From a virus: 64,000 nucleotides of DNA. A model generated the notes under the pieces. The model was given only the letters and a program-made list of their open reading frames with translations. It did no database searches and was not told where the DNA came from. The stretch lies in UHGV virus genome UHGV-1370948; one strand, given 5' to 3'. Below, in pieces: positions 3,733 through 48,970 of the stretch (its first letter is position 1; every line of letters begins with the position of its first letter). The translations under genes were made by a program, and so were the position numbers.

Positions 3733-6700
3733 ATGACACAGCAGACCAGAACCATCGCCGAATCCAATAACTTCATCGTGCTGGATAAATACGTTACAGA
3801 ATGGGAAGCCGGTGACCGCTACCAGAGTGAGTCGGAGTTAGAGCGCGAGCTGATTCAGGACTTGCGTAATCAGGGCTATGAGTTTGTGCCTGATTTAACC
3901 TCCCAGTCGGCGATGCTGGCGAATGTCAGGGTGCAACTTCAGACACTGAATCAGGTGGTGTTTAACGAAGGCGAATGGCGACGTTTTACCGAGCAGTATC
4001 TGGATAATCCGAGCGATACGATAGTCGATAAGACCCGTAAAATTCACACCGATTACATCTGTGACTTTACCTTCGATGACGGACGACTGGAAAACATCTA
4101 CCTGATTGACAAGAAAAGCCTTGTCCGTAACAAGGTGCAGGTTATCCAGCAGTTTGAGCAAACCGGCAGCCATGCCAATCGCTATGATGTCACGGTGCTG
4201 GTTAACGGCTTACCTCTGGTGCAAATCGAACTGAAAAAGCGGGGCGTAGCGATTCGGGAAGCCTTCAATCAGATACACCGCTACAGCAAAGAGAGCTTTA
4301 ATACCGAGAACTCCCTGTTCAAATATTTGCAGCTCTTCGTGATTTCAAACGGAACCGATACCCGTTACTTTGCCAATACCACAAAGCGGGATAAAAACAG
4401 CTTTGATTTCACCATGAACTGGGCGCGGTCTGATAACACCCTGATTAAAGACCTTAAAGACTTTACCGCCACCTTCTTCCAGAAACACACCTTACTCAAT
4501 GTTCTGTTCAACTACACCGTGTTTGATGTCAGCAACAATCTGCTGATTATGCGTCCCTACCAGATAGCAGCGACGGAGCGGATTTTGTGGAAAATCAACG
4601 GGGCTTATCAGGCAAAAAAATGGAGCTCCAGAGAGGGGGGCGGCTTTATCTGGCACACCACAGGTAGTGGTAAAACCTTAACCAGCTTTAAAGCCGCAAG
4701 GCTGGCAACTGAACTGGATTTCATTGATAAAGTGTTCTTTGTGGTTGACCGTAAAGACCTTGATTACCAGACTATGAAGGAGTATCAGCGTTTCTCACCT
4801 GACAGCGTTAATGGCTCTGACAGCACCGCAGGGCTGAAGCGTAATCTGGAGAAGAATGACAATAAAATCATTGTCACCACAATCCAGAAACTGAACAACC
4901 TGATGAAAGGTGAAGCCGATTTACCGGTCTATCAGCAACAGGTGGTCTTTATCTTCGATGAGTGTCACCGCAGTCAGTTCGGTGAAGCCCAGAAGAACCT
5001 GAAAAAGAAATTCAAACGTTTCTATCAGTTTGGCTTTACCGGTACACCGATATTTGTCGGTAAAAATGCCTTAGGGGATGAAGACACCGCCAGCGTATTC
5101 GGGGCAGAACTACACTCTTACATCATCACCGATGCTATTCGTGATGAAAAGGTGCTCAAGTTTAAAGTCGATTACAACGACGTTCGCCCGCAGTTCAAAG
5201 AGCTGGAAACGGAAACAGACGAAAAGAAACTCAGCGCCGCCGAGAATAAACACGCTTTGCTGCATCCGATGCGGATTAGCGAAGTCACGCATTACATCCT
5301 GAAGAATTTCCGTCAAAAAACACATCGGGCATTCTCTGGTGCTACAGGCTTCAATGCCATGTTTGCCGTCAGCAGTGTGGATGCAGCCAAAGCCTACTAT
5401 GAAGCGTTCAGAATCATACAGCAGTCGGCTGTTGAACAGGATAAGAACTACAAGCCTCTGAAGGTGGCGACCATCTTCTCCTTTGCCGCCAATGAAGAGC
5501 AGGACGCGGTCGGTGATATCAATGATGAAGGGTTTGATGTCACGGCGATGAACAGCAGTGCGCGGGAGTTTCTGGAATCGGCTATCAGTGACTACAATGC
5601 CATGTTTAAGGTTAACCATAGTACTGATGGCAACAACTTCCAGAACTACTATCGTGACCTCTCTGAGCGCGTCAAAAAGCAGGAAGTAGACCTGCTGATT
5701 GTGGTCGGGATGTTCCTGACCGGATTTGATGCCCCGACACTCAATACCCTGTTTGTGGACAAGAACCTGCGCTACCACGGCCTGATGCAGGCATTCTCCC
5801 GCACTAACCGGATTTATAACGCCACCAAAACCTTCGGGAATATTGTCACCTTCCGTGATTTAGAACAGGCCACAGTGGATGCCATTACCCTGTTCGGGAA
5901 GAGCAATACCCGAAGCGTGGTGATGGAAAAAAGTTATGACGAGTACATGGAAGGCTTCACGGACACGCTTACCGGAGAGGCGCGACGTGGCTTCACAGAT
6001 ATCGTGAGCGAGCTGGAGACGCGTTTCCCGAAACCCGCAGACATTGAGTCCGAAAAAGAGAAAAAAGCCTTCGTTAAGCTGTTCGGGGAATATCTTCGGG
6101 TAGAGAACATACTGCAAAACTACGATGAGTTTACCACGCTGAAAGCGCTGCAAACTGTTGACCTCAGTGACCCGGTAGCCGTGGAGGCGTTTAAAGCCGG
6201 GCACTATCTGGATGATGAGGCTTTCGCTGTGCTCCAGACAGTACGCTTACCCGCTGAGCGTAAAATTCAGGACTATCGCTCCAGCTACAACGATATCCGT
6301 GAGTGGCAGCGCCGTGAGCGTGATGCAAACACCAAAGATAAAAATAGCGTTGACTGGGATGATGTGGTCTTTGAGATTGATTTGCTGAAATCGCAGGAGA
6401 TTAACCTCGATTACATCCTGGGGCTGATTTACGAGCATCATCAAAAGAGTACGGATAAAGAGACGCTGAAAGAGGAAGTGAAGCGCTTAATCCGGGCCAG
6501 TCTGGGGAACCGTGCAAAAGAGGGGCTGATGGTCGATTTTATCGAACAGACGAATCTCGATGCCCTGCCGGGCAAAGAGGGCGTCATTGAAGCCTTCTAT
6601 ACCTTTGCACAACAGGCTCAGCAGCGTGAGGCAGAAGCCTTAATCAAAGAGGAAAACCTGAATGAGGACGCCGCCCGGCGCTACATCAGAAATTCTCTCA

Positions 6701-6855
6701 AGCGCGAATATGCCACGGAGAACGGCACTGCGCTGAATGAAACATTACCTAAGCTCAGTCCGCTGAACCCACAATACAGAACCAAAAAGCAGACGGTCTT
6801 TCAGAAGTTCGTGGCCTTTATCGATAAGTTCAAAGGCGTCGGTGGAAGTGTCTGA
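3733..6855 (+). CDS. hsdR: type I restriction endonuclease subunit HsdR (EcoR124-like)
   Basis: 1040 aa. SF2 helicase motifs (TGSGKT, DECH) and strong resemblance to R.EcoR124I as recalled from memory. Confidence 0.92.
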
Positions 6856-6950
6856 TACATCTGATATCACATGGGAGGCTTCGGCCTCCTGATTAAGTTC
6901 TCAGGATTTCTCTCCGCCATATGAAACCATACGGAATAGTTGTGCTGTAG

Positions 6951-7241
6951 GTGATTAAGTCATTTGCGAACAAGTGTCCAACTTATTTGCTAATAGGGGA
7001 TCAGATAAATGCGAATGCACAGGTATTGGCAAAGCGTATGGAGTCTCTTGGTGCCTTGACAATGCCGAAAAATAGGCTCTCACTTAAACACAATTGCTAC
7101 AAGATTAAGCTAAAGAATGACGGTTATCGTCTGGCCTATACGGTCAGAGACGACGAGAACGGGGAAGTTAGCGTTGTTGCCGTGGATAGACGTGATGAAA
7201 TTTACAACGAATTGAAGAAAAGGCTTGATGCTGATGTTTGA
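6951..7241 (+). CDS. RelE/ParE-superfamily (HigB 'killer'-like) toxin
   Basis: 96 aa. Starts MIKSF and has the C-terminal KHNCYKIKLKNDGYRLAYTVRDDENGEVSVVAVDRRDEIY pattern of RelE/ParE-fold toxins. Confidence 0.5.
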   Translation: MIKSFANKCPTYLLIGDQINANAQVLAKRMESLGALTMPKNRLSLKHNCYKIKLKNDGYRLAYTVRDDENGEVSVVAVDRRDEIYNELKKRLDADV

Positions 7242-7554
7242 TAGATTATCCCCAGAGCAAATTCGCGAGTTCCTGCTGGAACAAGGGTTTTTGAGAGTAC
7301 GCCAGCTCGAAGACAGTAGTTGGATCGGTGTGCTAAGGCTTGCTTTTACAACGTCGGTCTGTATGGATATTGACGAATTTTCGCCCTTTCGTTATCGCTG
7401 GTGTTTCGCTGACCCAGCAGAGGCAAACCACTTTTTCGAGACGGCCGTAGATTATGACGAAGCGCCGACGAAGCGCGATTCGTTGAAGGGGCACCGGTAT
7501 CGTGGTGAGCCGCTTCTGCGTGAAAAGGATGAGTTCGGCTTTGATAAGTGGTAA
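7225..7554 (+). CDS. hypothetical protein, possible antitoxin partner of the upstream toxin
   Basis: 109 aa. Overlaps the toxin ORF by 17 nt. No recognisable HTH motif. Confidence 0.3.
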   Translation: MMLMFDRLSPEQIREFLLEQGFLRVRQLEDSSWIGVLRLAFTTSVCMDIDEFSPFRYRWCFADPAEANHFFETAVDYDEAPTKRDSLKGHRYRGEPLLREKDEFGFDKW

Positions 7555-7637
7555 AAACTGTGGTTTTACTTGCACTGCGCTACAGTATAGAATGACAAGC
7601 GTTGTACATAGCCAGCAAAATGCGGGCGGTAAAAATT

Positions 7638-8162
7638 ATGAAAGAATCAATCACAAAAATTGCAATGGTTTTGGCGCTTGCCTTATCCGGGATAACGCAT
7701 GAATCGTGCGCTAAAGAAACTGTATGCGCTCAGCACATCGTTGCCCCTGGCATCGGCGTATCGTTCAGCGAGGAAGTTATGTCAAACATCAATAAGATGA
7801 ATGAGGTAACTGCAGAAGGTCGTGAACTTTACGCGAGAATTGATGAACTTGCAGAACGCGACTATGAAGCGGCAAAAATGGCTGCTGAGGGGATGCGTGC
7901 AGACATCATCGGAGCCTTGGCTATTGCTGAATTTTTATTCCAGGCACTGCCAGATGTTTCGGTGATCCGTTCATTCCCCAAAGACTCGATGCAGTACAAA
8001 CTTTGCAGAGCGGTCGCAGAAGCACGACACAATGCAAAAAATCTGGACAACCTGTTAAATCAGATACTGAACGTCAGCCCGTATCGTGAGTCAAACATCA
8101 ACCACGATGCACTGACATTACTAGCGGAACGTGGTACAAGGGCTGCGGCTAAATGGCATTGA
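7638..8162 (+). CDS. hypothetical secreted protein
   Basis: N-terminal signal-peptide-like segment MKESITKIAMVLALALSG, then a helical body. Overlaps the downstream toxin-like gene by 10 nt. The ORF could start earlier, at 7602. Confidence 0.35.
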   Translation: MKESITKIAMVLALALSGITHESCAKETVCAQHIVAPGIGVSFSEEVMSNINKMNEVTAEGRELYARIDELAERDYEAAKMAAEGMRADIIGALAIAEFLFQALPDVSVIRSFPKDSMQYKLCRAVAEARHNAKNLDNLLNQILNVSPYRESNINHDALTLLAERGTRAAAKWH

Positions 8163-8569
8163 TTGTCGAATTTAACCCGGATACAAGATCCGAGTTTTTA
8201 GACCCAACTTTCAAAAAGTACCCCGATTTAGAAAGCCAACTCAAAGCCGAATTTATTTATTGTAAGACGAAAAACGTCACAACGAATATTTTCGGCAACG
8301 ATGCCATTTTCACTTTCCCCTCTTACGCAGTAGAGGCACAGTTGTCTCGCGTTCATATCAAGCTGCCGAGCGAAGCGCCGTGGCCCCACGGCATACCCGA
8401 TCGTCAAAAGAAAAGTAACACTTACCTGGTTTACGCCCAGCATATGTGGAACCTTTCGAGCTATTCCATTCTGGCTCTTGTAACTCCAGCGCATGACCTA
8501 ATGAGTGCAGCAAACACTCAACTAATTTCTCGCTTTTCAGCCTACGCAGAGGCTTTTCACTCCCGTTAA
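8153..8569 (+). CDS. YafO-like toxin (ribosome-dependent mRNA interferase family)
   Basis: 138 aa. Blocks IFGNDA, RVHIKL, LVYAQ, ILALVTP and AEAF align with E. coli YafO as recalled from memory. Confidence 0.4.
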   Translation: MALIVEFNPDTRSEFLDPTFKKYPDLESQLKAEFIYCKTKNVTTNIFGNDAIFTFPSYAVEAQLSRVHIKLPSEAPWPHGIPDRQKKSNTYLVYAQHMWNLSSYSILALVTPAHDLMSAANTQLISRFSAYAEAFHSR

Positions 8570-8621
8570 TCTGCAAGACAGAGTCCCATAAAGACCATCA
8601 GATTTCATCAAAACGCCCTTT

Positions 8622-8654
8622 TGTGATTCCATACCTATAGAGTATGGAATCACA
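8622..8654. repeat. perfect 12-13-bp inverted repeat (tgtgattccatac / tatggaatcaca) with an 8-nt loop
   Basis: Direct read. No U-tract follows on either strand, so it is not a canonical terminator. Candidate operator or recombination site upstream of the integrase. Confidence 0.5.
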
Positions 8655-8704
8655 GGAAAAAAACGGTTATTCTGGGTTGACCTTATAGCTAAAATACCGT
8701 TAAA

Positions 8705-8724
8705 TACTGTATATACATACAGTT
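8705..8724. promoter_or_regulatory. LexA (SOS) box TACTGTATATACATACAGTT immediately upstream of the integrase start
   Basis: CTGT-N8-ACAG with an AT-rich spacer, about 18/20 matches to the E. coli consensus TACTGTATATATATACAGTA. Ends 2 nt before the annotated ATG at 8727. Confidence 0.7.
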
Positions 8725-8726
8725 AC

Positions 8727-9773
8727 ATGGAGGCGGCGATGTTAAATTCGTTCGAGATCGATAAAGCTTTGGAAAATTGTTCTGCTGAAACAGTTCAATA
8801 TCTCCAGCGCTGCCAAACCATGACCGGCTCACAAATGATGGCCATGGATGCCGATTCGAAATTCAGTGAAGCCTTTATGTTTTTCACGCGTTTATCACTC
8901 CTTGTGACTCGGCGGCGTCCTGAGCTGGGTGTTCACTGCATTCTCATTCACGCCATGCCGGTTATCGGCGACAAAAAAGTTTCGGACATCAACCGCCTCA
9001 CAGTTAACAGACTAATTAATGCCTTGGTGTTGGATGGCAAGTTAGTACAAAGCCGGCGCGTTTTTTCTGTTTTAAAACAGTTCCTTGGGTGGTGTGAGTT
9101 CCAGGGCGTGATCGAGACTTCCCCACTTGGAGCGATGTCTCTTAACAAAGTTGCTGGCGGACTGAAGCCAAGACCTCGGGAGCGTGTGTTGTCGGATGAT
9201 GAGCTGGAAAAATTTTGGCACATGTGGGACTTTGCCGATGTTTCAGAGAGCACGCGTTGGGCCGCGCGTTTCGTGCTCTGCTCAGCCAGACGGCCGGATG
9301 AAGTGCTCCGGGCTAAACGAGCTGAATTCGATCTCAATAATGATGTATGGAATCAGGGTAGTAGGAATAAGTCTGGTCGTGAACATTCACTACCCATTAG
9401 CCCCATAATGAAGCTGTGCATTAATAAAATGATGGCCGCAGCCGGGAATAGCGAGTGGCTAGTTCCCTCCCCAAAGAATGAGACGAAGCCTGCATCCAAG
9501 GTTCTGATAGCTCAGGCATCAAGAAGAATTATGAGTAGAGATTATCTTTCCGATAACATCCCGGCCCCCTTCGAAATCAGAGATTTACGAAGAACGGCCA
9601 GAAGCACACTCTCTCGACTTGGTGTAGAGCAAGACGTGGCTCGTAAAATCATGAACCACAGTCTTGAGGGAATAGATCGCGTCTATGACAGACACGACTA
9701 TCTTGACCGAATGTCCGAGGCAATGTCAGCATACTCTGAATTCTTAATTGAAACATGTAAGATCAATCAGTAA
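8727..9773 (+). CDS. tyrosine recombinase / phage integrase
   Basis: 348 aa. C-terminal catalytic region with conserved Arg (ARRPDE), an RRTARS box and the RVYDRHDY tyrosine motif. An ATG at 8739 is an alternative start. Confidence 0.8.
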   Translation: MEAAMLNSFEIDKALENCSAETVQYLQRCQTMTGSQMMAMDADSKFSEAFMFFTRLSLLVTRRRPELGVHCILIHAMPVIGDKKVSDINRLTVNRLINALVLDGKLVQSRRVFSVLKQFLGWCEFQGVIETSPLGAMSLNKVAGGLKPRPRERVLSDDELEKFWHMWDFADVSESTRWAARFVLCSARRPDEVLRAKRAEFDLNNDVWNQGSRNKSGREHSLPISPIMKLCINKMMAAAGNSEWLVPSPKNETKPASKVLIAQASRRIMSRDYLSDNIPAPFEIRDLRRTARSTLSRLGVEQDVARKIMNHSLEGIDRVYDRHDYLDRMSEAMSAYSEFLIETCKINQ

Positions 9774-10068
9774 TACCTAACTTACTCTTCAGAGCATCAT
9801 TTTCATTCTTTATTTTTTTAACAAATTCATAGATTTCGGGGAATCTCTCGGATAAGTACATCATCATAAAATCGTCTGGCGGCGCACCAACAGCTCTCGC
9901 GAATGGGATGACCTTGTCTAACGAAAGATGAGCACGGCCAGATTTGATGAGAGAAATGTTGTTAGCGTTCTCAAATCCAACTTCTTTTGCAATCTGAGCT
10001 TGTGTTTTGCCACAGGTGAGCATCGCTGCGGTCATAAACGGACGGTAACGCCCTTTGGGTTCGTACAT
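9763..10068 (-). CDS. XRE-family HTH transcriptional repressor (cI/C2-like)
   Basis: 101 aa. HTH segment TQAQIAKEVGFENANNISLIKSGR. Lies divergent to the early region, with direct-repeat operators just upstream. Confidence 0.7.
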   Translation of the reverse strand: MYEPKGRYRPFMTAAMLTCGKTQAQIAKEVGFENANNISLIKSGRAHLSLDKVIPFARAVGAPPDDFMMMYLSERFPEIYEFVKKIKNENDALKSKLGITD

Positions 10069-10092
10069 GTTATAGTCTGCCTTGTATTGAAT

Positions 10093-10149
10093 TATTTTAG
10101 TAAGTAAGTAACCACATACTATTAAATCATTTTAGTAAGTAATCACATA
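10093..10149. promoter_or_regulatory. two direct repeats ATTTTAGTAAGTAA(GTAAC/TC)CACATA, candidate operators of the divergent repressor
   Basis: Direct read at 10093-10117 and 10129-10149. Both contain the TAAGTAA half-site that is also found in the dispersed palindromes. Confidence 0.5.
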
Positions 10150-10369
10150 TTTACGTATTGTTCAAGACTAAACCACTAAACCAAAAATGTAAACCCACAC
10201 CGCCAACTTTGGGCTACGGCGCTAAATAACCACAAAATAGAATAAAAATCAATAGGCTAAGTCTGCTTTTTTGATGCAAATTTGTTGTAATCTTAAAAAA
10301 ATAATAGTAACTTTGACATGAATCATTTAAGACATACTAATAAGCAATAAACTATTTAATGGTATTAAC

Positions 10370-10588
10370 ATGAATGCAATTTTGAACTGGATGTCGACGG
10401 CGACAAAACTATCAGCAATATCTTTGAGTGACCAAATCGGAGCCGACATCATTTGCGAACTGGGCGCGAAAGATGGACACATAGCAGGCTCCGATGATCT
10501 TTTTTTCCATATTAATCATCTAGATAAAGATTTCGCTTTAGTACAGGGAATTTCGAACTACACTCTCATTTGCATTCACACCAACTAA
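10370..10588 (+). CDS. hypothetical protein, first gene downstream of the operator region
   Basis: 72 aa. TTGACA -35 at 10313-10318 with a TACTAAT-like -10 upstream. Occupies the position expected for a cro-like gene but has no obvious HTH. Confidence 0.3.
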   Translation: MNAILNWMSTATKLSAISLSDQIGADIICELGAKDGHIAGSDDLFFHINHLDKDFALVQGISNYTLICIHTN

Positions 10589-45539: not shown

Positions 45540-46034
45540 ATGATTAATTACCTCTCCGATCTTCTTCGAAATAAGCGGTTTGAGCGAAATGTCATCTCAA
45601 ATCTAAACTTCCTCGAAAGTCGTATCCAAAACCTCAATGAGCGAATCCGAGTGCTTGAAAGCACCGTAGTGTCACAAGCCAACACGATCACCTCTCTCAC
45701 GAAGAGCAGTGATTCGACGCCGCGCCCCGACCCGTTCCCTGATAAAAACTTTGCCCATGGAAAATTACCAAAGAAAAAGACTACAGCCGCTGGCGCTTCT
45801 GGTTATCGGGCTGACTCTGTCACCTCTCGGCATCGCGCCAGTTACGCAGATGATGCAGCCGGCGCTCAGCAATTCACGGAAAACAGAAGCCAAGTCCACG
45901 AGGACAGCGCATCTGTCTCCAGACATCACGGCTCATCCCACCACCACGACTCCAGTTCCTGCTACAGCAGCCACGGGGACGTTGGAGGGTATGACTCTGG
46001 ATGCTCCGATTCGTCGTCCGGGTCTTTTGACTGA
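45540..46034 (+). CDS. hypothetical protein (coiled-coil N-terminus, Ser/His-rich disordered C-terminus)
   Basis: 164 aa ORF. Its own upstream AAACAAATTGTTTA motif lies downstream, ahead of the next gene. Confidence 0.4.
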   Translation: MINYLSDLLRNKRFERNVISNLNFLESRIQNLNERIRVLESTVVSQANTITSLTKSSDSTPRPDPFPDKNFAHGKLPKKKTTAAGASGYRADSVTSRHRASYADDAAGAQQFTENRSQVHEDSASVSRHHGSSHHHDSSSCYSSHGDVGGYDSGCSDSSSGSFD

Positions 46035-46102: not shown

Positions 46103-46528
46103 ATGTTTGGTATGTTTAAAAAGAAAGTCCGCAAAGCAGCCGTTGAAGTTAAGAAAATGGAGAACCGCGATGCTGTAGAAGCAACCGTATGGGGCGCTTA
46201 TGCGATCGCCTATGCGGATGGCTCATGCGACGCGAAAGAGATCAGCGTTCTGGAAAAAACCATCTCCGCTCTGCCCTCTTTCTCCCCGTTTGCTGGCGAG
46301 ATTGCCCAGATGAGCGCCAATATTCGCTCTCGCTACGAAGCATCCCCTCGCTCCGCAAACGCTGAAGCCATGCGCCAGCTGGCCGACGTTGCCGGTACAA
46401 CCGATGCGGTCGACGTTTTATGTCTGTGCCTGGATATCGCTGATAACGACGGCATCGATGAGAAAGAAGAGGTGATGCTGAAGAAGATCGCTCAGGCGTT
46501 GCAGTTGTCGCTGGATCAGTATCTGTGA
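46103..46528 (+). CDS. TerB-like domain protein (putative)
   Basis: 141 aa. WGAYAIAYADGSCDAKEISVLEKTIS ... DGIDEKEEVMLKKIAQAL pattern typical of TerB / DjlA-N domains. Confidence 0.45.
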   Translation: MFGMFKKKVRKAAVEVKKMENRDAVEATVWGAYAIAYADGSCDAKEISVLEKTISALPSFSPFAGEIAQMSANIRSRYEASPRSANAEAMRQLADVAGTTDAVDVLCLCLDIADNDGIDEKEEVMLKKIAQALQLSLDQYL

Positions 46529-46683
46529 TGGCTCGCGTCAGCATTGCGCTGGCGCTGCTGGTTTTGTCTGTGCTGGTGGATTTCACCAGCCGGATTCTGT
46601 CAGTGGCCGCGGACGGTGTTTTGGTCATAACAGGCATAACTCTATTACTGCCTGCTCTGATTAAAGGTGCCAAGACAAAGTAA
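46528..46683 (+). CDS. small membrane protein (51 aa)
   Basis: Hand translation MARVSIALALLVLSVLVDFTSRILSVAADGVLVITGITLLLPALIKGAKTK. ATG overlaps the TerB-like stop. Followed by a strong terminator. Confidence 0.35.
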   Translation: MARVSIALALLVLSVLVDFTSRILSVAADGVLVITGITLLLPALIKGAKTK

Positions 46684-46781: not shown

Positions 46782-47468
46782 GTGAAAACGTTGGAAGACT
46801 TAACTCCTGCAGAACCTAAATCCATGAAGTCAGTTGGATATATTTACGTCATTGAAGATGTTCAAAGAGGGCTAGTAAAGATTGGGAAGAGCGTCGATCC
46901 AGTCGCCCGGATATCCAATATTGTCAACATCAGCGGAATTACCAAGATAAAACAATTCATATCACACCGTATCGCTGGCTATAGCCAGGTAGAGCATCGA
47001 ATGCATGTCATCTTTACAGACCATCGGGTACGAGGTGAATGGTTTCGCTGTGACTTCGAGGAGGCTAAATCAGCCCTGATTTCTATCCTCCCCGCAGAGA
47101 TAACCGAAGAGGAGGTTGTCGAGACGAGAAAGCGAGACATGGAGCGTTCCGCATCGGCCTTAGAGACTATGCGTGAAAAGTTTTCAGGCTCATCAACCGA
47201 TATACGGCGAACTCCAATGGACTGGACGCTCGAATTTTTGTCGTCAGCCCATCAATTCGTTTTAGCTCAGCAAAAGCTTTATGGCGATGTGAGAGCGCTG
47301 GGCCGGCTTGGGGTCGTTTACGAGGGCTATCTCGAGTTATTTGCGGCCCTAGAGGACTGCATCTCAATCGCGCAAGAGATAAACGAGGAAGAGGCTATAG
47401 CAAGTCTCACGAAATACGAAAGAGCCTGCTTTATAGATAAAGCGCGCAAAGCTGCTGAGTATATCTAA
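46782..47468 (+). CDS. T5orf172 / GIY-YIG-like domain protein
   Basis: GYIYVIEDVQRGLVKIGKSVDPVARI...EWFRCDFEEA matches the T5orf172 (MUG113) GIY-YIG-like domain. Helical C-terminal domain of about 110 aa. Start is GTG 46782 or ATG 46824. Confidence 0.55.
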   Translation: MKTLEDLTPAEPKSMKSVGYIYVIEDVQRGLVKIGKSVDPVARISNIVNISGITKIKQFISHRIAGYSQVEHRMHVIFTDHRVRGEWFRCDFEEAKSALISILPAEITEEEVVETRKRDMERSASALETMREKFSGSSTDIRRTPMDWTLEFLSSAHQFVLAQQKLYGDVRALGRLGVVYEGYLELFAALEDCISIAQEINEEEAIASLTKYERACFIDKARKAAEYI

Positions 47469-47995: not shown

Positions 47996-48000
47996 AGCCA

Positions 48001-48030
48001 AGGCGCAGCTGTTCCGCTGCGCCTTTTCTG
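48001..48030 (+). terminator. rho-independent terminator
   Basis: aggcgcagc-tgttcc-gctgcgcct (perfect 9-bp stem) followed by tttctg. Confidence 0.55.
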
Positions 48031-48039
48031 GAGCATTCT

Positions 48040-48357
48040 ATGAAAATACCGATCATTCTTTTAGCCGTTGCGTTGGCCGGCTGTAGCACTCGACCTGTTA
48101 ACACAATCAAGTTCCCGGATCGCGCGTATCAATACGGTGTCTATGGCACTGTTCATGTGCAATACGACGTCAACAAAGACGGCCGCATAGAAAATATCGT
48201 GGTCAACGGCGACGGCGACGGCTTTTTTACAAAGCAGATCGTCAATGACATGAAGCATTGGCGGCTTGAGAAAGGCCATCCGATGAAAGCCCAGAAGCTT
48301 ACCGTAGCTTTCGAAAGAGATCGTGTTCGAGCTAAAGGTGGATTCCTTGAAAATTAA
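48040..48357 (+). CDS. lipoprotein with a TonB C-terminal-like domain
   Basis: Lipobox LAGC in MKIPIILLAVALAGCST. Body KFPDRAYQYGVYGTVHVQYDVNKDGRIENIVV...W resembles the TonB-C fold consensus. Confidence 0.5.
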   Translation: MKIPIILLAVALAGCSTRPVNTIKFPDRAYQYGVYGTVHVQYDVNKDGRIENIVVNGDGDGFFTKQIVNDMKHWRLEKGHPMKAQKLTVAFERDRVRAKGGFLEN

Positions 48358-48405: not shown

Positions 48406-48945
48406 ATGATTAATGGAAATGTAATTCGTCAGGCAAATGACGGCGGCAATACCTGGATAGATTGCTCAGAAGAAGCCTTCAAACGAGCGAAAGAAAACGG
48501 TACGCCGGTGCGAGAAGTCCATTTGAATGACGAATCCTTCCGTGCGGCATTTGATGTCTGGCAGGATAAGACGGATTGGGTTCAGAAAGACCGGCGTTTT
48601 AATGTGTTAAAGCCTTGGGGGTGGCATCGTGCCGATGTGCTGAAGGCATTTATTGAGCATCTGGAAGAAAGCAACGCTCAGGTCATCCAGTCACGCGACC
48701 ACTACAAGCGCATGGCCGAGGAATCGCTGAAATGCGCAGCAGGTTGCCAGGTGGAAGTGGTTTCTGCGCCAGGTGGAGAGCGAGTGATTAAAGAGCCTAT
48801 GGCGAAACTACCGCCTCACATTTATCGTGAGCTGGTTTCTGAACTGACGCAGACCGCAAAGAAGCACTGCGGAACCGGTTCAATGAGAGAGGCACTGAGT
48901 TACGTGCTTTCTCGCTACGTAGAACCGGATCACTCGAAGAAATGA
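48406..48945 (+). CDS. hypothetical protein
   Basis: 179 aa ORF. Confidence 0.5.
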   Translation: MINGNVIRQANDGGNTWIDCSEEAFKRAKENGTPVREVHLNDESFRAAFDVWQDKTDWVQKDRRFNVLKPWGWHRADVLKAFIEHLEESNAQVIQSRDHYKRMAEESLKCAAGCQVEVVSAPGGERVIKEPMAKLPPHIYRELVSELTQTAKKHCGTGSMREALSYVLSRYVEPDHSKK

Positions 48946-48948
48946 ATA

Positions 48949-48970
48949 AGGGGCAAAAGCCCCTTTTTGT
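48949..48970. terminator. bidirectional rho-independent terminator between convergent genes
   Basis: aggggc-aaaa-gcccct, with a T-tract on one side and an A-tract on the other. Confidence 0.6.

Follow-up and report, generated by a model that had tools for sequence, protein, structure and literature searches.

The prophage protein Cor of phi80, N15 and HK022, an outer-membrane lipoprotein encoded in the tail-gene region, blocks the TonB-dependent receptor FhuA. Llp of phage T5 (PDB 8A60), a small acylated outer-membrane lipoprotein encoded next to a receptor-binding protein (RBP) gene, binds the periplasmic face of FhuA, remodels the plug and collapses extracellular loops 7 and 8; the effect is allosteric, leaves FhuA inactive as a phage receptor and requires the acyl anchor. 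Phage Rtp has, in its RBP locus downstream of gpJ, an accessory gene whose product is reported to block the cognate receptor, LptD, by binding its periplasmic face (bioRxiv 10.64898/2026.04.02.716166); LptD is not a TonB-dependent transporter. The subject here is a gene at 48040-48357 of a 64,000-nucleotide (nt) stretch (the window) of UHGV virus genome UHGV-1370948, a Klebsiella pneumoniae SSU5-like phage-plasmid. The gene encodes a predicted 105-amino-acid (aa) lipoprotein whose body is a TonB C-terminal domain.

A published analogue is found in the lytic Drexlerviridae phage IsaakIselin (Bas10) of Escherichia. The terminal receptor of IsaakIselin and of IME347, which has the same genes, is the TonB-dependent transporter YncD; receptor specificity can be predicted from which allele follows gpJ, and genes for cognate superinfection exclusion are thought to be among those at such loci (PMC8594841, the BASEL study). 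YncD was later renamed PqqU, and two proteins of the IsaakIselin locus were named RBP-1 and RBP-2 and modelled on its extracellular face (PMC12124388, 2025). The third gene of the locus encodes SIP-1 (QXV80559), which has a signal peptide and a Foldseek likeness to the TonB C-terminus; AlphaFold2 (AF2)-multimer puts it on the periplasmic side of PqqU, and it is predicted to block superinfection (PMC12124388). The function of SIP-1 is thus a prediction, whereas the mechanism of Llp is experimentally established.

On computational grounds we estimate a probability of about 0.6 that the window lipoprotein is a receptor-directed superinfection-exclusion factor, belonging to a three-gene host-recognition cassette (RBP-2, RBP-1, lipoprotein). 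Read directly from the data were its fold and TonB homology, its lipobox, its linkage to RBP genes, its recurrence in unrelated elements, purifying selection, a pqqU gene in the host and a tail-tip protein that ends like the J proteins of phages with this RBP type.

The lipoprotein and its TonB C-terminal domain

A ribosome-binding site (GGAG, 48030-48033) lies 6 nt ahead of the ATG of the lipoprotein gene. The product begins MKIPIILLAVALAG-C15-S, with Lys2, a hydrophobic core, the lipobox L12-A13-G14-C15 and Ser at +2, in agreement with the signal peptide ending in [LVI][ASTVI][GAS]C that identifies bacterial lipoproteins. Each of the five orthologues examined, the most distant at 50% identity, retains a lipobox (LAGC, LAGC, LVGC, LTAC and LTGC). 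By the rule of the Lol pathway, Ser at +2 in place of the Asp retention signal directs a lipoprotein to the outer membrane. Lol-dependent outer-membrane sorting is therefore predicted here, as is lipidation. The spacing from the predicted lipidated Cys to the start of the fold is only about 5 residues. Orthologous open reading frames (ORFs) are 102-105 codons long, and this length and the lipobox are preserved even where synonymous sites are saturated. Orthologue pairs without such saturation gave ratios of non-synonymous to synonymous substitution (dN/dS) of 0.15-0.24, and on these values the gene is under purifying selection. The protein evolves faster than RBP-1 (dN 0.23 versus 0.12 for the same pair).

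The lipoprotein is the sole TonB_C-like ORF of the window. Pfam TonB_C (PF03544) matches residues 23-88 at E 5.6e-7, its score of 30.4 bits exceeding the gathering cut-off (24.6), and TIGR01352 (tonB_Cterm) stops just short of its cut-off (26.6 against 27.1). The NCBIfam enterobacterial TonB equivalogs match at E 1e-12 over the last ~70 model positions only, with 31-48 bits against whole-protein cut-offs of 265-448. When a profile of the lipoprotein family was compared with PDB sequences, the matches to TonB/FusB C-terminal domains spanned E 3e-13 to 1e-9 and included those of FusB (2.9e-13) and E. coli TonB (4.6e-10). Identity is about 27-32% to the solved TonB/FusB domains and 28% to the C-terminal domain of K. 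pneumoniae TonB.

The AF2 model of the lipoprotein has a core predicted local distance difference test (pLDDT) score of 80-90 and runs helix 27-32, strand 36-44, strand 49-56, helix 64-71 and strand 85-91, giving the three-stranded sheet packed on helices that defines the TonB_C fold. Using Foldseek, it superposed on FusB (7zc8), BtuB-bound TonB (2gsk_B) and FhuA-bound TonB (2grx_C) with a root-mean-square deviation of 1.6-1.8 Å over 72-73 residues. All of the top ten PDB matches were TonB/FusB C-terminal domains, with template modelling scores of 0.70-0.79 on the target, and TolA domain III came later, only at E > 0.2. The viral structures of BFVD gave no match to the model below E 0.2. When the lipoprotein was aligned with the TonB proteins of E. 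coli and K. pneumoniae, F25-P26, R28, G48, F63, W74 and F91 corresponded to the YP motif, R166, G186, F202, W213 and F230 (E. coli numbering), the core residues being invariant or nearly so. The position of TonB Q160 is occupied by Thr22. Strand three (L87-F91), just past the Pfam envelope, is the counterpart of the strand that pairs with the TonB box. The lipoprotein therefore shares both the fold of the TonB C-terminal domains (1U07, 2GSK, 2GRX and Pectobacterium FusB 7ZC8) and clear sequence homology with them.

The first-pass annotation of this DNA had described a 105-aa lipoprotein with a body following the TonB C-terminal pattern (PDRAYQYGVYGTVHVQYDVNKDGRIENIVV...HW), and had named a fold unlike TonB-C as evidence that would count against its proposal. 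The exact ORF with its canonical lipobox LAGC agrees with that description and the quoted string is present in the translation; the domain call is upheld by Pfam TonB_C, the PDB profile search and the AF2 model, whose fold does match TonB/FusB C-terminal domains.

RefSeq names the product "energy transducer TonB". This name is misleading, because the lipoprotein, at 105 aa in total, has neither an N-terminal membrane anchor for ExbB/ExbD nor a proline-rich spacer and is predicted to be sorted to the opposite membrane. Unlike TonB, it would be lipid-anchored to the outer membrane and could not transduce energy, and this identity was rejected. An EF-hand in DVNKDGRIEN was also rejected (12.3 bits against a cut-off of 25.9), the stretch being the turn of the TonB beta-hairpin. 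Homology to Cor was dismissed, as the match to the Cor PHROG (E 0.08) is confined to the signal peptide; Cor is a similar kind of exclusion lipoprotein, not a homologue. The same holds for Llp, no structure of which was among the Foldseek PDB matches. The lipoprotein resembles Llp in being a small, here predicted, acylated outer-membrane lipoprotein encoded next to an RBP gene, but Llp is not a TonB mimic and no sequence or fold relationship was found between them. PADLOC defence-system models gave zero matches among the four genes tested.

The receptor-binding pair, distant relatives and the likely target

The opposite strand carries, at a distance of 0.6 kb downstream, homologues of IsaakIselin RBP-1 and RBP-2 that converge on the lipoprotein gene (Table 1). 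A small exported protein is thus encoded beside RBP genes, as with Llp, Cor and SIP-1. The RBP-1 homologue is a putative PqqU-binding RBP; its relatives carry Pfam DUF8377, and homologues occur in 59 phage records, including the YncD-targeting IsaakIselin and IME347. K. pneumoniae has a pqqU with 77.7% identity to that of E. coli. The window therefore holds the three-part arrangement of IsaakIselin, with a less diverged, predicted lipidated TonB domain in the role of SIP-1. From this linkage and the published SIP-1:PqqU model, the target of the lipoprotein is most likely PqqU (YncD), and the evidence points to one cognate transporter. The first-pass annotation had left the element's own receptor to be identified, and the RBP-1/RBP-2 context points to PqqU/YncD. 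Its idea that a TonB-C mimic jams docking at a TonB-dependent receptor and excludes phages is supported on computational grounds: the RBP linkage favours action on a cognate PqqU over a general jamming of all TonB boxes.

Every close orthologue found (50-99% identity) comes from a Klebsiella SSU5-like phage-plasmid or from a matching metagenome or viral contig. Within PLSDB, the lipoprotein is present in 29 Klebsiella plasmids and RBP-1 in 29, and in two more divergent phage-plasmids the lipoprotein gene abuts RBP-1 with gaps of 34 and 191 nt. In SSU5 and Klebsiella phage pJN2-26 the syntenic region has the flanking genes and none of the three cassette genes. The cassette is therefore judged to have been acquired by this Klebsiella lineage of SSU5-like phage-plasmids. 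A tblastn search of 50,697 phage records returned no close lipoprotein homologue, and SSU5 and its phage relatives are therefore taken to be without the gene.

The likeness to SIP-1 lies in a small exported protein with a TonB-C-like fold beside the same RBP-1/RBP-2 pair. SIP-1 differs in having a plain signal peptide without lipobox and no Pfam TonB_C match, and BLAST found no similarity between it and the lipoprotein. The setting differs also: SIP-1 belongs to a lytic phage and lies beside gpJ, whereas here the locus is on a phage-plasmid, far from the tail genes, and the candidate exclusion gene and the RBP pair point towards each other.

Among 1.84 billion proteins searched, many of 94-114 aa were made up of a signal peptide or lipobox and TonB_C only. 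Genomic context was looked up for six of these distant homologues, which come from Pantoea, Erwinia tracheiphila and Chimaeribacter and have 27-31% identity. All six are in lambdoid prophage tail modules. In five cases gpJ and one or two small accessory genes immediately precede the homologue and the tail-fibre gene follows it, a place classically taken by exclusion genes of the cor type. A gene of the DUF8377 (RBP-1) family is the direct neighbour in three of the five. A single conserved RBP-1 plus TonB_C module in all the prophage homologues was considered and not upheld, as the post-J genes of two prophages are not detectably DUF8377.

A third family is represented by phage HK639, which has an unannotated lipoprotein ORF of 120 aa (NC_016158.1 23538-23897, minus strand) with the lipobox LVAGC beside an RBP-1 homologue; the record annotates on the opposite strand of this DNA the 52-aa HK639_26. 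About 50 homologues occur in Enterobacter, Kosakonia and E. coli. Pfam gave no domain match to the family, and SIP-1 belongs to it (hidden Markov model (HMM) E 1e-18). The AF2 model of an HK639-type protein has a core pLDDT of ~90, and its eight best PDB matches are TonB/FusB C-terminal domains (best E 4e-3). A broad profile of secreted TonB_C proteins matched the HK639-type profile at 97.4% (E 1e-11) with signal peptides and at 87% (E 4e-6) without them; for the narrow profile of the window family the value was 16% with signal peptides removed. These results suggest that the TonB-mimic exclusion mechanism predicted for one E. coli phage is present in three families, those of phage-plasmids, Erwiniaceae prophages and HK639/Drexlerviridae.

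Two of the prophage loci have further features. In Pantoea sp. Al-1710 (prophage at 3938-10579 of the examined locus) a gpK-like and a gpI-like tail gene enclose the TonB_C lipoprotein, and the locus has additional inserted cargo of three alpha/beta-hydrolase genes and a GDSL-lipase autotransporter. The prophage of Erwinia tracheiphila CP089942.1 has two small TonB_C-like ORFs in tandem after gpJ (7632-7958 and 8001-8288 of the examined locus; HMM E 5e-12 and 2e-31), which suggest duplication of a putative exclusion gene.

Proposed mechanism and competing explanations

As an exclusion factor, the lipoprotein would be exported, lipidated at Cys15 and seated in the inner leaflet of the outer membrane, where the short linker (~5 residues) would hold its domain right under the transporter barrels. 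The edge of its TonB-like sheet could then pair with the TonB box of PqqU while the domain surface contacts the plug or the barrel rim. PqqU docked in this way would be held in a state that RBP-1/RBP-2 could not use, as Llp does with FhuA, and TonB-driven uptake of pyrroloquinoline quinone (PQQ) would probably be blocked as a side effect. Carrier or infected cells would be shielded from the same and related PqqU-targeting phages, and progeny virions might also be spared dead-end adsorption to debris. PQQ-bound, loop-closed PqqU is refractory to IsaakIselin (PMC12124388), and one may speculate that a TonB box trapped in an extended, "ligand-loaded" state would favour the closed-loop form of PqqU. 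Periplasmic TonB fragments, overproduced or engineered, inhibit TonB-dependent transport and provide a precedent for a decoy.

Several observations weigh against the exclusion role or limit it. IsaakIselin infects a tonB mutant (PMC12124388), so plain competition with TonB cannot explain exclusion; by analogy with Llp, an allosteric blocking of the receptor is assumed as the likelier mode. The function of SIP-1 is itself a structural prediction, and exclusion by the lipoprotein is likewise a computed proposal. Compared directly, the lipoprotein and SIP-1 are only weakly related (hhalign 56%), and the link between them runs through the HK639-type family and the shared fold. About 37 kb separates the tail genes from the cassette, which is situated in the early/DNA-metabolism region, and this makes use of the RBP pair in the virion uncertain. 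A sigma-70 promoter was looked for upstream of the lipoprotein gene and none was found. On the phage-plasmid pCP102 of Enterobacter sp. CP102 (NZ_CP104015.1 13686-20333) an RBP-1 homologue with 70% identity is followed by umuC, and no TonB_C-like or HK639-type ORF is present within 3 kb of it. Two of the six prophage homologues adjoin post-J genes encoding 229-240 aa that are not detectably DUF8377; the target therefore need not always be PqqU, and these two may act on other transporters.

The main alternative is a general TonB antagonist, in which the lipoprotein competes with host TonB by binding TonB boxes on many, or even all, TonB-dependent transporters. Cells would then be broadly resistant to TonB-dependent phages, group B colicins/klebicins and microcins, and would pay for this with reduced uptake of siderophores, B12 and PQQ. 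The Pfam and NCBIfam matches place it far closer to real TonB C-terminal domains than SIP-1 is, the box-pairing strand and the R166 equivalent are conserved, and the inhibitory action of overproduced periplasmic TonB fragments would be of this kind. In addition, Kp1604 p2, a similar SSU5-like plasmid, cuts the plating of three lytic phages 10-100-fold and lowers virulence (PMC8969562). Such whole-plasmid phenotypes fit either a cognate or a general target and cannot be assigned to the lipoprotein gene, whose carriage by p2 is unconfirmed. We consider general antagonism unlikely, since a cognate target is indicated by how closely and how often the gene is linked to one RBP module and to prophage RBP loci downstream of gpJ, a block of iron uptake would be costly to K. 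pneumoniae and yet these plasmids are common in clinical isolates, and identity to the C-terminal domain of host TonB is low (about 28%) with Thr as the counterpart of Q160. TonB/TolA-type C-terminal domains are also versatile modules for binding proteins, and there are abundant multi-copy TonB_C proteins with other architectures; with no defence-system model matching the lipoprotein, it could instead be a peptidoglycan or envelope tether, or a transporter adaptor that aids the host by lysogenic conversion of nutrient uptake. The restriction of close orthologues to Klebsiella SSU5-like phage-plasmids, and the finding of all short homologues with examined context in prophage tail modules beside receptor-recognition genes, make a periplasmic or outer-membrane accessory role of this sort without exclusion distinctly improbable.

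Two further explanations have little to recommend them. A match to phrog_1267 ('Rz-like spanin', E 2e-6) and the small size of an outer-membrane lipoprotein recall an o-spanin, the outer-membrane component of a lysis system. Such a gene lies within or beside an i-spanin gene in a lysis cassette, whereas the neighbours here are a 144-aa soluble protein and a 179-aa protein; no inner-membrane spanin partner was found among them, and no holin or endolysin within several kb. The fold is the globular TonB C-terminal one and not the extended, proline-rich o-spanin type, and the better PHROG match, phrog_34172 (a 251-position profile), covers only the C-terminal end of the profile, as for a full-length TonB. 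The spanin was rejected on context and fold and is very improbable. It is just as hard to credit that the gene is a non-functional host tonB fragment captured by the element. Such fragments do exist on the widespread 10-kb ColRNAI bacteriocin plasmids of K. pneumoniae; the lipoprotein, however, has 28% identity to host TonB and its own lipoprotein signal peptide and ribosome-binding site, and its ORF is intact in lineages at synonymous saturation (dN/dS 0.15-0.24), so that capture of an inert fragment is already contradicted. A recent copy of host tonB was rejected on the same identity, the lipobox and the purifying selection.

The ColRNAI fragments can be seen in K. pneumoniae p44-3 (NZ_CP025464.1, 10,060 bp), where two genes (4567-5300), one 'TolA' (123 aa) and one 'TonB family' (121 aa), lie beside a colicin-like tRNase/immunity/lysis operon; about 340 mobilizable plasmid records matched. 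The C-terminal part of the 121-aa piece is nearly identical to chromosomal K. pneumoniae TonB. It has no signal peptide, and as a captured host fragment it is not comparable with the lipoprotein.

The concept of a TonB mimic that acts in exclusion and is encoded beside PqqU-type RBPs is not new, having appeared in 2025 as a structural prediction. New here are a version with clear TonB homology and a lipobox, located away from the tail module of a Klebsiella phage-plasmid that is common in the clinic, and exported TonB_C proteins at the RBP loci of Erwiniaceae prophages. Also new are the ties of fold and profile among three sequence families, and the mislabelling of such proteins as TonB in RefSeq. 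It is a tentative and rather improbable extension that exported stand-alone TonB C-terminal domains form a broad modular exclusion class, mobile with RBP cassettes among lytic Drexlerviridae, lambdoid prophages and phage-plasmids and each tuned to the transporter of its own phage, in which the Klebsiella version would be the least diverged from TonB, would be lipid-anchored beneath the outer membrane and would perhaps bind several TonB boxes. If several TonB boxes are indeed bound, K. pneumoniae with the plasmid would differ measurably in its uptake of PQQ and siderophores, its sensitivity to bacteriocins and phages, and its virulence.

The exclusion role gives a concrete PqqU receptor hypothesis for a common and poorly understood family of K. 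pneumoniae phage-plasmids, and the label "energy transducer TonB" hides a likely phage-resistance determinant. For Klebsiella phage therapy, genes of this type would predict resistance to phages that share the same transporter, and a natural TonB-domain decoy anchored in the outer membrane would serve as a probe of TonB-box signalling.

The phage-plasmid and the genes around the cassette

The window is 99.8% identical to non-mobilizable K. pneumoniae plasmids of ~108.5 kb, such as pCAVP366-109, and related plasmids are common in clinical isolates of this species. They encode terminase, portal, capsid and tape measure proteins, a tail-tip protein of 4233 aa, partition genes and a large DNA-metabolism block. 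The tail-tip protein is encoded outside the window (NZ_CP145150.1 53718-66419). Its N-terminal ~1000 aa and C-terminal ~270 aa are J-like, with roughly 2900 extra aa between them, and over its last 260-285 aa it shares 30-33% identity with the C-terminal part of J from IsaakIselin, HK639 and a Chimaeribacter prophage, which carry this RBP type. With the exclusion cassette in mind, this J-like C-terminal domain is a candidate docking site for the RBP pair.

Table 1. Positions of the cassette genes and nearby elements in the 64,000-nt window
Feature	Position	Strand	Remarks
GC-rich hairpin, 10 pairs	48000..48025		Between the upstream 144-aa gene and the lipoprotein gene
Candidate superinfection-exclusion lipoprotein gene	48040..48357	+	105 codons, ATG to TAA; signal peptide with lipobox, and TonB_C
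Signal peptide and lipobox	48040..48084	+	Codons 1-15; Cys15 codon 48082-48084; read from sequence
TonB_C domain of lipoprotein	48106..48303	+	Residues 23-88 by Pfam
179-aa gene	48406..48945	+	Between the lipoprotein gene and RBP-1; no Pfam family
Bidirectional terminator-like hairpin	48948..48965		Between the convergent plus-strand genes and the RBP pair
IsaakIselin RBP-1 homologue (QXV80560), 216 aa	48970..49620	-	45% identity, E 6e-67 to bas10_0025
IsaakIselin RBP-2 homologue (QXV80561), 98 aa	49630..49926	-	36% identity, E 3e-20 to bas10_0026

The hairpin ahead of the lipoprotein gene scores as a terminator on the minus strand only. The 179-aa gene matches, over a short stretch of DNA, an 'Ead domain protein' from a Klebsiella phage and is replaced in a K. 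oxytoca relative by a different gene of 97 aa. It is probably variable filler and not part of the module, because the lipoprotein gene and RBP-1 abut directly in two relatives.

Upstream of the cassette, a GIY-YIG nuclease gene (46782-47468) occupies a variable slot. Most related plasmids have a Rha-family regulator gene there, and a 4-kb query then aligns in two pieces with 81% coverage. An ORF of 164 aa with a Ser/His/Asp-rich, low-complexity C-terminus is found at 45540-46034, a stretch between rnhA and the TerB gene for which the PLSDB gene table has no gene. A TerB-family gene (141 aa) and an overlapping gene for a DUF3927 small membrane protein (46103-46683) form a conserved pair upstream of the cassette, which is also present in pJN2-26 and the K. 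oxytoca relatives.

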